Shown: piece by piece, positions 27,358 to 30,576 of the stretch
Layout of the letters: each line of letters starts with the position of its first letter
How positions within the stretch are numbered: the first letter of the stretch is position 1
NCBI GenBank assembly: GCA_038231775.1
Contig: JBBRKS010000001.1
Span: forward strand, 22,938 to 86,937
Length of the DNA: 64,000 nucleotides
Origin: Rhodobacterales bacterium
GTDB taxonomy: Bacteria > Pseudomonadota > Alphaproteobacteria > Rhodobacterales > Rhodobacteraceae
Reading direction: 5' to 3'
Program-made: the position numbers and the translations under genes
Notes under the pieces: generated by a model
Database searches by the model: none
The model's input: the letters and a program-made list of their open reading frames with translations, nothing else
What the model was told of the DNA's origin: nothing

Positions 27358-28170
27358 CTACTTGCCCCCACCTGCCGTCTCTCCACCCGACCGTGTCAGG
27401 TAATAGGCACCAAGGATCGGCAGGAAGGTCACCGCGAACACGACCATGGCCACCACGTTGGTGACAGGGCGTTGGCGCGGGCGGATCAGCTCGTCCAGCA
27501 TCCAGATCGGCAGGGTTTTTGAGGCGGCTCCGGCTCCGGCGGTGAAGGTGGTGACGATGACTTCGTCGAAGCTGAGGGCGAAGGCGAGCATTCCGCCGGC
27601 CAACAGGGCGGTGGCAAGGTTGGGCAGCAGGATGTGGCGGAAGGTCTGGAAGGCGTTGGCACCAAGGTCGGCAGACGCCTCAAGAATCGCACCGGACAGG
27701 CGGCGAAAGCGGGCGACGGCGTTGTTGTAGACGATGACGATGCAGAAGGTTGCATGGCCAAGCACGATGGTGATCCACGAAAAATCAAGATGCAGCAGGG
27801 GGATGGCGGACCGCAGGGCGATGCCGGTGATTACGCCGGGCAAGGCGATGGGCAGGATGATCAGCAGGGACAACTGGTCGCGACCCCAGAATTTTGCCCC
27901 GCTCATGGCGGCGGAAATCAGCGTGCCAAGGATCAGGGCAAGGCAGGTGGACAGCAGTGCGATCTGACATGACAGGATCAGAGGCGGCCAGATGTCGGCA
28001 CGGTTCCAGGCGATGGCGAACCATTTGGTGGTCAGGCCGGGCGGCGGGAAGGCGAAAGAGCGCTCTTCAATTGTGAAGGCGTATAGGAAGATCAACAGGA
28101 TAGGCAGGTGCAGGAAGGCGAGGCCCCCGGCTGCGGCGAGTTTCAGGGGGAGGGGCGCGTTAGAGGGCAT
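27358..28170 (-). CDS. Polyamine-type ABC permease (PotC/YdcV-like)
   Basis: EASADLGA EAA loop; FALSFDE. Confidence 0.93.
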   Translation of the reverse strand: MPSNAPLPLKLAAAGGLAFLHLPILLIFLYAFTIEERSFAFPPPGLTTKWFAIAWNRADIWPPLILSCQIALLSTCLALILGTLISAAMSGAKFWGRDQLSLLIILPIALPGVITGIALRSAIPLLHLDFSWITIVLGHATFCIVIVYNNAVARFRRLSGAILEASADLGANAFQTFRHILLPNLATALLAGGMLAFALSFDEVIVTTFTAGAGAASKTLPIWMLDELIRPRQRPVTNVVAMVVFAVTFLPILGAYYLTRSGGETAGGGK

Positions 28171-29083
28171 CGAACGCGCCCGCCTTGCGGGCGAGGGTCA
28201 GGTAAACCAGCATGATCAGGATCGGCACCACGGCGAAAGCGGCGGCCAAAGGCACGTTTCCGGCGGTGCCTTGCAGCTGATAGACCGCCATGCCGATGTA
28301 GCTGGCCGAATTGCCGATGATCTGCGGGATGATGTAATCGCCCAACGTCAGCGAAAAGGTAAAGATTGACCCCGCGATGATGCCCGGCAAGGCAAGGGGC
28401 AGCGTGACCGTCCAGAAGGTTTGCCGTGCGGTGGCGCCAAGATCGGCTGCGGCCTCAATCATCGAGGTGGGCACCCGTTCCAGCGCGGCCTGCATAGGCA
28501 GGATCATATAGGGCAGCCAGACATAGCAGAACACGGTGAAAGTACCGAGATACGAGGTGGAAAGCGAGTTCCCCCCAATCCCCGGCAACACGAGGGCGGC
28601 GTTCAAAAGCCAGTCGGTGTGGGTGGTGGTGGCGACCCAGGTCACAATGCCCTCTTTGGCGAGGATCAGTTTGAAGGCGTAGACCTTGACGAGATAGCTG
28701 CTCCACAACGGCAGCATGACGCCAAGGTAGAAGGCGGCTTTCCAGCGGCCTTTGGCGTAGCGGGCGGCGTAGTAGGCGATCGGGAAGGCAAGGATTGTGG
28801 AAGCGAGGGTGACGGCTGTGGCCATCAGAAGGGTGCGGGTGATGATCGACAGGTTGGAGGGTGTGAACAGCTGCGCGTAGGTTTTGAGGGTGAATTCCGG
28901 GATGATCAGGCCGGAGAAATCGTCGAGCGAATAGAAGGACTGCAGCAACAGGGCTGCGAGCGAGCCGAGATAGATGAGGCCGAGCCAGAGGAGCGGCGGG
29001 GTCAACAGGAGGGCCAGGAGGAGTTTGGGGTGGCGCCAGAACAGCGTGGTAAGGTGGTCGGGCAGGGATCTGGTGGGTGTCAT
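28160..29083 (-). CDS. Polyamine-type ABC permease (PotB/YdcU-like)
   Basis: EAAADLGA; SYLVKVYA; LGDYIIP. Confidence 0.93.
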   Translation of the reverse strand: MTPTRSLPDHLTTLFWRHPKLLLALLLTPPLLWLGLIYLGSLAALLLQSFYSLDDFSGLIIPEFTLKTYAQLFTPSNLSIITRTLLMATAVTLASTILAFPIAYYAARYAKGRWKAAFYLGVMLPLWSSYLVKVYAFKLILAKEGIVTWVATTTHTDWLLNAALVLPGIGGNSLSTSYLGTFTVFCYVWLPYMILPMQAALERVPTSMIEAAADLGATARQTFWTVTLPLALPGIIAGSIFTFSLTLGDYIIPQIIGNSASYIGMAVYQLQGTAGNVPLAAAFAVVPILIMLVYLTLARKAGAFDAL

Positions 29084-29336
29084 TTGGAGGAGGCGCCGGC
29101 ACGAATTTTCTGCGAAAATTCAGGGGATTTGGGGGCATGGATTTTCTGCGAAAATTCAGCGGGTTCGGTTAGGCGAATTTTCTGCGAAAATTCGACGGTA
29201 TTGGCTTGATGAATTTTCTGCGAAAATTCGGCAAGGGTGCGGGGTCGATTTTTCTGCGAAAAATCGGGGGGAGGGATGGCCCCGGTGTCCTGCACAAAAG
29301 CAAAAGCCTCCGGCGGGAGTATTTGGCAAAGAGCAA

Positions 29337-29340
<4 letters not shown>
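29080..29340 (-). CDS. Candidate 86-aa repeat ORF (5 x EFSQK, 12-aa period)
   Basis: ATG overlaps the ATPase TGA; its TGA overlaps the permease ATG; no internal stop. Translation is unproven. Confidence 0.35.
29103..29265. repeat. Array of five 19-bp palindromes at a 36-bp period
   Basis: GAATTTTC-TGC-GAAAATTC-type units at 29103, 29139, 29175, 29211 and 29247; four different 17-nt linkers. Confidence 0.97.
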
Positions 29341-30374
<1,034 letters not shown>

Positions 30375-30576
30375 GGTGGGGATTTGGGCACCGTGGATTG
30401 GGGTGGCTTGAACTTGAGCGTCAAAGGCTTGGGGCGGCAGTGTTACGCGTGGCGACGGTCAGAGAATCGAGCAATGGCCGGGCTTCGGGCGTACGCTTTA
30501 TTCGACTACCGGGCAAAGGGTGCCTCTGCCCGGCCTTATGGATGTCAGCCGCTCGCCAATCTGTGGCCTTGCTTGG

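Follow-up and report, generated by a model that had tools for sequence, protein, structure and literature searches.

A REP-like palindrome family and its largest cluster, an array of 36-bp period inside an ABC transporter operon of a Rhodobacterales bacterium

In the DNA stretch analyzed here (the window, 64,000 nucleotides of contig JBBRKS010000001.1, assembly GCA_038231775.1, from a Rhodobacterales bacterium), five 19-bp palindromes follow one another at an exact period of 36 bp between the ATPase gene and the first permease gene of an ATP-binding cassette (ABC) transporter operon. These palindromes are a lineage-specific family resembling the repetitive extragenic palindromic (REP) sequences of other bacteria, and the array at positions 29103-29265 is the largest local cluster of that family. 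Our preferred explanation, which we consider likely, is that the array is a REP-like tandem cluster built from a duplicated 36-bp unit, whose spacing has been kept by the frame constraint of a bridging open reading frame (ORF), here called the relay ORF, that crosses the spacer between the two genes. A first-pass annotation of the same sequence had listed an amplified REP cluster as one of three options, next to an array of 36-nt hairpin RNAs and a phased protein-binding array, and it is this option that proved correct, as about 145 copies are dispersed in the genome and the family is restricted to one lineage. A candidate new guide-RNA system is thereby removed, the array being a REP cluster. 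What is found instead is a REP family without a REP-associated tyrosine transposase (RAYT), whose stems are kept by compensatory changes over species-level divergence and which calls for a host factor or function.

The array and its dispersed family

Re-reading of the sequence, Tandem Repeats Finder (periods 36 and 72 across 29102-29266) and shuffling all bore out the initial description of five palindromes of 8-3-8 geometry that start at 29103, 29139, 29175, 29211 and 29247. The window holds five matches to the palindrome against 0.05 expected from 100 dinucleotide shuffles, none of which gave five. Copies 1, 3 and 4 are GAATTTTCTGCGAAAATTC, that is, GAATTTTC-TGC-GAAAATTC; the one mismatch in copy 2 and the four distinct 17-mer linkers were also found to be as first described. 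The array is made up as follows.

29103..29121: first REP-like palindrome, copy 1, GAATTTTC-TGC-GAAAATTC, bordered by CAC and AGG as is usual in the family; on the mRNA, 19 nt separate it from the permease ATG downstream
29139..29157: palindrome copy 2, GGATTTTC-TGC-GAAAATTC, with a single mispair (G·T on the plus strand, A·C in the minus-strand mRNA)
29175..29193: palindrome copy 3, a perfect dyad
29211..29229: palindrome copy 4, a perfect dyad
29247..29265: palindrome copy 5, GATTTTTC-TGC-GAAAAATC, with a compensated change; a member of a major genomic subfamily
29122..29246: linker-holding span, with four 17-nt linkers (29122-29138, 29158-29174, 29194-29210 and 29230-29246) alternating with copies 2-4

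Because all the linkers differ, collapse or expansion of the array by short-read assembly is an unlikely artefact. The linkers are G-rich on the plus strand and C-rich in the mRNA, and the homology between them is a weak trace. The shared pattern that had been noticed at first reading (GG..T.GG on the plus strand) is indeed real but marginal, as in-register identity averages 6.8/17 versus 4.8/17 in the flanks of unrelated copies (P~0.025), and linker similarity measured against composition shuffles gives P~0.047. The array as a whole folds better than shuffled sequence (z = -3.75). As for the compensatory change in copy 5, it does keep the stem, but it is not private to this copy, as GATTTTTC/GAAAAATC is the commonest subfamily in the genome.

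The genome searched was the window's own assembly (4.42 Mb in 320 contigs, 61% GC, 93% complete). The palindrome pattern with at most one mismatch occurs there 118 times, and when the TTTC-N3-GAAA core is sought with no fewer than 7 of the 8 stem positions paired, 145 copies in 86 clusters are found, namely 45 singletons, 28 doublets, nine triplets, three quadruplets and one quintuplet, which is the window array. Spacing within clusters ranges from 21 to 172 bp, and a constant period is seen only in the window array; 36 bp is not a preferred spacing elsewhere in the genome or in the loci fetched from other genomes, and the evenly spaced mini-arrays of relatives have other periods (32/32, 30/30 and 26/26 bp). 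The search of the genome and its relatives that the first-pass annotation had proposed thus revealed a dispersed family and no second 36-bp array, and the many isolated copies and variable spacing that it had named as marks of an ordinary REP expansion were largely borne out.

Two main self-complementary subfamilies, GATTTTTC/GAAAAATC (n = 58) and GAATTTTC/GAAAATTC (n = 34), are accompanied genome-wide by rarer compensated stem variants (AATTTTTC/GAAAAATT and GATCTTTC/GAAAGATC, and further GAGTTTTC/GAAAACTC and GGTTTTTC/GAAAAACC). The palindrome is AT-rich in a genome of 61% GC, and the family consensus, CAC-GAWTTTTC-TGC-GAAAAWTC-AGG, describes a unit of about 27 nt. When copies are oriented by their loop, an asymmetric consensus (GGnCAC, palindrome, AGG) is obtained, in which conservation ends at about positions -5 and +22. 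A unit of this length, together with a commonest head-to-tail spacing of 25-30 bp, implies units that abut one another. We also considered whether the palindrome is specially free of stop codons in six frames, which it is not, as 19-35% of arm permutations are likewise stop-free.

In the genome, the palindrome lies mostly downstream of genes, at their 3' ends. Of 123 copies with the canonical loop, 54 are in convergent spacers, 52 in co-directional and three in divergent ones, and 10 lie inside called ORFs, in a genome that is about 84% coding and whose intergenic bases are 21% convergent, 56% co-directional and 23% divergent. More than 90% of these copies are therefore outside called ORFs, with a 2.2-fold enrichment in convergent spacers and an approximately 9-fold depletion in divergent ones. 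Inverted pairs are tail-to-tail in 24 cases versus head-to-head in two, and the tail-to-tail pairs can fold into long hairpins (-17 to -45 kcal/mol). Same-orientation pairs number 24 as well, doublet spacing varies between 21 and 97 bp, and in co-directional spacers the orientation of the palindrome relative to transcription is evenly split (26:26). Genes flanked by inverted copies, which we inspected for a REPtron-like arrangement, are ordinary metabolic genes. A literature search for the motif returned a chance match in a C. elegans paper only, and in the literature on REPs in Rhodobacter relatives we found no paper describing the AT-rich palindrome family.

The family is confined to relatives of the window's genome. 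Of 33 same-genus genomes, 26 contain the exact 19-mer, in 1-93 copies with the highest number in the window's own genome, and none of 28 genomes sampled from other genera, families and orders has it. A scan of species representatives named Tabrizicola, Pseudotabrizicola, Alitabrizicola, Gemmobacter and Rhodobacter kunshanensis as carriers; many metagenome-assembled genomes of the Paracoccaceae/Rhodobacteraceae carry it too, and elsewhere there are a few scattered single matches, as chance would give. These carriers would place the window's genome near Tabrizicola and Gemmobacter. Occupancy also varies from site to site: among 31 syntenic REP sites taken from other genomes, 11 bear the palindrome here as well and 20 do not, and copy numbers differ. 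The traits expected of REP sequences that we could document are hence a short palindrome in many copies, extragenic placement, and lineage restriction with variable site occupancy. As a separate observation, the exact 19-mer occurs once or twice in several Candidatus Poribacteria assemblies, more frequently than in other unrelated phyla, and this may reflect either a conserved site or a chance result.

Evidence on the stems themselves comes from the orthologous spacers of other species, flanked by genes of about 75-83% identity. At such orthologous sites the positions of the palindromes are conserved and the intervening sequence is unalignable. At a site on contig C45, the outer stem pair, A-T in the window's genome, is C-G in two species and G-C in a further one; at a site on C4, GAAATTTC/GAAATTTC here corresponds to GAATTTTC/GAAAATTC elsewhere, and at a site on C40, GAATTTTC/GAAAATTC corresponds to CAATTTTC/GAAAATTG. 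Since compensatory changes preserve the stems and the linkers degenerate, these comparisons support the view that selection, or structure-dependent maintenance, acts on stem base pairing. Selection on the stems had been proposed at first from the array alone, and it now finds backing both in the compensated variants seen genome-wide and in the exchange of outer pairs between orthologues. Pairing may matter at the level of RNA, single-stranded DNA or a cruciform; orientation counts are symmetric and there are no informative G·U cases.

The relay ORF at the ATPase-permease junction

The array lies within a minus-strand operon that, based on Pfam, runs from a solute-binding protein gene to an ABC ATPase gene, the array, and two permease genes. 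The features of this region are listed here in order of their coordinates.

27358..28170, minus strand: permease 2 (BPD_transp_1), overlapping the end of permease 1
28160..29083, minus strand: permease 1 (BPD_transp_1)
29080..29340, minus strand: 86-codon relay (bridging) ORF that overlaps each of its neighbours in an ATGA
29306..29337: second, unrelated dispersed repeat, GCCTCCGGCGGGAGTATTTGGCAAAGAGCAAT, with ~30-50 genomic copies, adjoining the ATPase stop codon
29337..30458, minus strand: ABC transporter ATPase gene (ABC_tran + TOBE_2), with a stop-to-stop frame of 373 codons
30577..31752, minus strand: periplasmic solute-binding protein, the operon's first gene (SBP_bac_8/1)

The ATG of the relay ORF (29340-29338) overlaps the TGA of the ATPase gene in an ATGA at 29340-29337, and its own TGA (29082-29080) overlaps the ATG of permease 1 in a second ATGA at 29083-29080. 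No obvious Shine-Dalgarno sequence precedes the permease 1 ATG, where the mRNA reads CCUCCUCCAAAUG. All five palindromes share the frame of the relay ORF, in which they read (D/E)FSQK(I/N).

In relatives, the spacing of the ATPase stop and the permease start varies between a direct overlap and over 500 nt, and the orthologous junction holds zero, one or two copies of the palindrome, or other repeat families, against five copies here. In spite of this variability, the frame across the spacer is kept. Among genus orthologues with a spacer above 60 nt, 14 of 17 retain a (start minus stop) mod 3 of 1 with the bridging frame open, and these frame-keeping spacers are 64-361 nt long and quite different in content. 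From metagenomes, 80 orthologous loci were fetched and 62 could be analyzed, of which 32 have a direct ATGA overlap. When the metagenome spacer is at least 40 nt long, it falls in the relay frame class in 22 of 25 cases, and the frame is open in all 22, versus about half for the other two frames; in each of these orthologues the ATPase stop shares bases with a start codon (as TGATG or ATGA), as does the permease ATG with a TGA. If each spacer length is counted once, the relay frame class takes in 28 of 32 lengths (binomial P = 3e-10). In the genome-wide background of spacers above 60 nt, frame classes are uniform and a given frame is open in ~30-37%. The relay peptides, on the other hand, are unconserved across lineages, being Pro/Arg/Ala-rich translations of repeats in differing frames, and, judging from these comparisons, what is conserved at the junction is the openness and geometry of a frame, not a protein. 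The junction hence offers an unusually clean comparative case of a long, non-conserved spacer kept as a doubly overlapping open frame.

The association between palindromes and such ORFs extends beyond this operon. An ORF was counted as relay-type if its start fell between -20 and +6 nt relative to the upstream stop, and its end between -6 and +20 nt relative to the downstream start. By this definition, 10 of 28 palindrome-bearing co-directional spacers (60-400 nt) contain one, versus 60 of 798 without a palindrome (Fisher P = 4e-5). The length-matched expectation, with the palindrome length discounted, is 2.8 ± 1.6 relay ORFs, and 0 of 5000 simulations reached 10. A second case in point is contig C45:24840-24960, between two ABC ATPase genes, where the overlapped ATGGCTGA stop/start is duplicated around three REP copies and a relay ORF of 38 codons has at its start the opening codons of the gene downstream (MADP...). 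The relay ORF of this junction is kept in two other species, with 104 and 146 nt and the same frame class.

Repeats other than the AT-rich palindrome also occupy the orthologous ATPase-permease junction, which is a hot spot for such elements. The repeat at 29306-29337 corresponds to a 31-nt element (GCCTCCGGCGGGAGTATTTGGCAAAGAGCAA, ending (A)T) that is found at the same junction in many relatives, where it is read in different frames (CQILPPEA or ANIPAGGS), and that lies next to the AT-rich palindrome in only three of 50 copies. At three orthologous junctions (L019, L020 and L021, in genomes G002, G012 and G024), a GC-rich, GTAG-type REP, GGTGGGCGGATGCCCACCCTAC, is present in tandem, and a single 54-bp unit (18 codons) is the whole difference between L019 and L020, with the relay frame still open. 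Another AT-rich hairpin, CAAAATTCTT-CCTTC-AAGAATTTTG, was seen about 25-35 nt upstream of the permease start in metagenome orthologues (L183, L186, L188, L242 and others), inside the relay ORF, where its reading is AQNSSFKNF. In swapped order, its arms look like the half-sites of the window palindrome. The relative with the best full-length DNA match, genome G009, has two palindromes 37 bp apart that are read in different frames, and its linker, GGGGTTTGGCGGGCAGGC, resembles window linker 1 (top 1.7% of background), which suggests that a G009-like doublet may have been inherited and then expanded in the window lineage. Exact-protein look-ups placed no identical flanking proteins on record in other assemblies.

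Origin of the period and competing explanations

The most economical origin of the exact period would be an old tandem duplication, at this junction, of a 36-bp unit made of the palindrome and its flank; the linkers would then have drifted almost to saturation, with the stems held by selection on pairing. The ancestral junction would have been an ATGA overlap between the stop of the ATPase gene and the start of the permease gene. Published experiments indicate that coupling by termination and reinitiation requires genes to overlap or to lie very close together (PMC10666635) and breaks down beyond a distance of about 20 nt (PMC10666635, PMC6728339). A relay is a plausible means of coupling across a longer, invaded spacer: repeat-invaded junctions would keep the spacer as one open frame from the ATPase stop codon to the permease start codon, and ribosomes would terminate, restart, translate the spacer, melting the hairpins as they pass, and restart again at the permease, so that translational coupling would be preserved. 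We infer translation of the relay ORF from the sequence patterns described above. Outside the palindromes, C makes up 44% and G 19% of the spacer mRNA, and translation of such a C-rich spacer might also shield it from Rho. Because 36 nt equal 12 codons, gain or loss of a unit would be frame-neutral, and the linkers would be fixed in length and free in sequence because an indel of 1-2 nt would break the relay. The selection on the period postulated in the first-pass annotation therefore gains indirect support, but its cause would be the reading frame of the spacer ORF and not a 36-nt RNA unit.

Several points weigh against this explanation. The homology between linkers is weak (P~0.025-0.05), so that the tandem duplication is deduced and not demonstrated. 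The frame constraint covers only the total length of the spacer, and accounts for the persistence of the spacing and not for its origin. The 37-bp spacing and mixed frames of the G009 doublet mean that equal register is not needed for a relay. A single hairpin is weak as RNA (-5.6 to -5.8 kcal/mol), and the gene-context statistics were obtained with our own crude codon-usage ORF caller. Lastly, a REP trait that the family lacks is a cognate RAYT in the genome: no Y1_Tnp domain (RAYT or IS200/IS605 TnpA) was found in the window's own genome, whereas control genomes gave matches, and a scan of 33 genus genomes returned one sub-threshold match only, in G012, a genome with a single palindrome copy. 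As no RAYT was found, the canonical enzyme for mobilizing REPs is missing.

A broader proposal can be built on the relay explanation, and we regard the case for and against it as evenly balanced. Operon junctions of this kind in the present group of Paracoccaceae may once have been stop/start overlaps that were invaded by repeats and systematically kept as relay ORFs, the REP family being a palindromic, RAYT-less analogue of mycobacterial MIRUs (interspersed repetitive units); selection for coupling would shape the geometry of the array, including its 12-codon period, and a factor that reads the structure would maintain the stems. The invading repeats would be, with the same even confidence, the AT-rich REP, the GC-rich GTAG-type REP and the 31-nt element. 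If this is true, a relay ORF would let operons withstand invasion by repeats in a simple manner, and there would be a general reason why the periods of some intergenic repeat arrays are multiples of three.

Of the alternatives to a duplicated unit held by a relay frame, the strongest, although we think it doubtful, is that the array is a functional mRNA element, whose hairpins, like the malE-malF REPs of E. coli, block 3'-to-5' exonucleases or cause partial termination or polarity, so that the binding-protein and ATPase genes are expressed above the permeases. Such a role would be compatible with the REP classification. Stabilization of mRNA by REPs is established in E. coli, and the role would suit an array that lies between cistrons of one operon and belongs to a family strongly enriched behind gene 3' ends. 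The selection on stem pairing at orthologous sites and the folding of the array beyond that of shuffled sequence also speak for it. The individual hairpins, however, are not only weak but AU-rich and without a U-tract, and the 26:26 orientation in co-directional spacers is not what an mRNA element would lead one to expect. Moreover, relatives manage with zero to two copies at this junction, and the relay ORF, if translated, would melt the hairpins continually.

Serial insertion with a ruler is an improbable alternative. According to this explanation, every copy would have arrived on its own, through an enzyme whose cut falls a set distance away from a hairpin already in place; the even spacing would be a property of that enzyme, and the linkers would share no ancestry, which agrees with linkers that are barely more alike than unrelated flanks and with same-orientation neighbours that elsewhere sit tightly at 25-30 bp. 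Insertion beside existing copies has, in fact, been described for REPINs, the doublet form of REPs (PMC3116915). Nevertheless, no further cluster of the genome or of the loci fetched has the same-orientation offset of 36 bp more than once, the searches gave no candidate HUH/Y1 transposase, and the resemblance of the G009 linker to linker 1 suggests an inherited doublet.

We consider it still less probable that the array is a phased set of operator-like sites, occupied by a nucleoid protein or a dimeric DNA-binding protein, and that the five sites in a row would build up a higher-order complex. Perfect 8-3-8 dyads that are AT-rich in a GC-rich genome and conserved across species would be in keeping with this, and the bacterial interspersed mosaic elements (BIMEs) of E. 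coli bind IHF and gyrase. The outer pair co-varies, however, and compensated variants are many; such covariation fits pairing rather than two identical half-sites read by a protein, and makes a binding array unlikely. Only three of the 123 copies are in divergent (promoter) spacers, the spacing is variable everywhere else, and 36 bp correspond to about 3.4 helical turns, so that successive sites would presumably be on different faces of the helix. For its covariation, its placement at 3' ends and a period out of helical phase, the second of the three original options is thus hard to uphold.

That the 86-codon ORF encodes a genuine small repeat protein, a functional peptide with five (E/D)FSQKI repeats, is very improbable. 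The frame is open here and in orthologues, with coupled start and stop, but the peptides of different lineages share only translated dispersed repeats in differing frames (CQILPPEA vs ANIPAGGS, EFSQKI vs NFRRKF), range from 21 to about 120 codons, and have the Pro/Arg/Ala-rich composition typical of translated GC-rich non-coding DNA; the exact peptide, in addition, is not on record as a called gene.

Scarcely any weight is left for a CRISPR-like or TIGR-like guide-RNA array, in which 36-nt units would be processed into hairpin RNAs and the 17-nt linkers would target foreign nucleic acid. The layout is regular, the linkers are unique, and 36 nt is the length of TIGR units, but this candidate was rejected, as the repeat is dispersed over 86 sites, often single and variably spaced, with no cas gene among the seven flanking ORFs scanned and no Nop gene in the genome; its location inside an operon and a conserved open frame, and the zero to two copies or other repeats held by relatives, also argue against it. 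The checks suggested at first reading came back negative in this respect: no Nop domain (PF01798) was detected anywhere in the window's own genome, whereas control genomes gave matches, and Pfam found no cas genes among the seven neighbouring ORFs scanned (~24.4-33.6 kb), so that the initial remark on their absence holds for these ORFs. Likewise, the whole spacer used as blastn query had no match in phage and plasmid collections; matches of single linkers would be uninformative, as exact 17-mers match a large viral collection by chance. A permissive Rfam scan of 27-31 kb gave no family at threshold and two sub-threshold chance matches (ALIL and Six3os1).

The ATPase gene and comparison with known systems

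Two observations concern the ATPase gene itself. The first canonical start codon of its frame is found only at 30269, without ATG, GTG or TTG before the Met just ahead of GPSGSGKT, and the open frame at 30269-30458 codes for the conserved N-terminal region ahead of the Walker A motif. The gene has either a non-canonical start or a sequence error. Within the same gene, at 29557-29604, a 15-bp tandem repeat (GATTCCGGACGCAAC, 3.2 copies) lies in frame and codes for a repeated LRPES pentapeptide (SLRPESLRPESLHPES) before the C-terminal TOBE region.

Among known systems, the REP, BIME and REPIN sequences of Enterobacteria and Pseudomonas (PMC3116915) are close to the family described here in that they are short imperfect palindromes with an asymmetric flank, have about a hundred or more extragenic copies, and are lineage-specific. 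They also occur as singlets, as inverted doublets that form long hairpins, and occasionally as even tandem arrays, and are located behind genes and in the spacers of operons; P. fluorescens SBW25, for instance, has tandem REP arrays with even spacing (Bertels & Rainey 2011, PMC3116915). Unlike those families, ours came without a RAYT/Y1 transposase in the 33 genus genomes, its head is CAC with no GTAG, and its stem is AT-rich and weak in a GC-rich genome. Its doublets, moreover, have variable spacing (21-97 bp), and inverted doublets, singletons and head-to-tail runs are equally common.

CRISPR and TIGR-Tas arrays share with the window array a conserved hairpin repeat that alternates with unique short sequences, and, in the case of TIGR, a 36-nt period. 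Here, however, the repeat is dispersed and often single, the linkers are 17 nt long, and the array lies inside an operon and an ORF; CRISPR repeats are confined to arrays next to cas genes, with spacers that are about 30 nt long and match mobile elements, and TIGR arrays have a gene for a Nop-domain Tas protein beside them. The malE-malF REPs of E. coli, which stabilize mRNA, are also hairpins between the cistrons of an ABC importer operon, but their place is after the binding-protein gene, they are GC-rich, and no relay ORF is known to contain them. Rickettsia palindromic elements (RPE, 100-150 bp) reportedly insert into real protein genes, and have in common with our family that palindromic selfish repeats are tolerated in translated sequence by keeping the frame open; in the window, however, the translated frame would be that of a non-conserved spacer ORF.

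The nearest parallel to the relay ORF is offered by the MIRUs, through which an ORF runs that is coupled to the neighbouring genes (Supply et al. 1997, as summarised in PMC12548453). As in the window, MIRU units are in tandem between co-transcribed genes, the ends of the ORF overlap the neighbouring stop and start codons, and the unit length fits the reading frame. The family described here differs in having palindromic units, an evenly split orientation, and most copies outside operon junctions. MIRUs, by comparison, are said to have a fixed orientation relative to transcription, to be devoid of dyad symmetry and to differ in copy number from strain to strain. Because the relay ORF is conserved whatever fills the spacer, the constraint in our case appears to come from the host operon and not from the design of the element.

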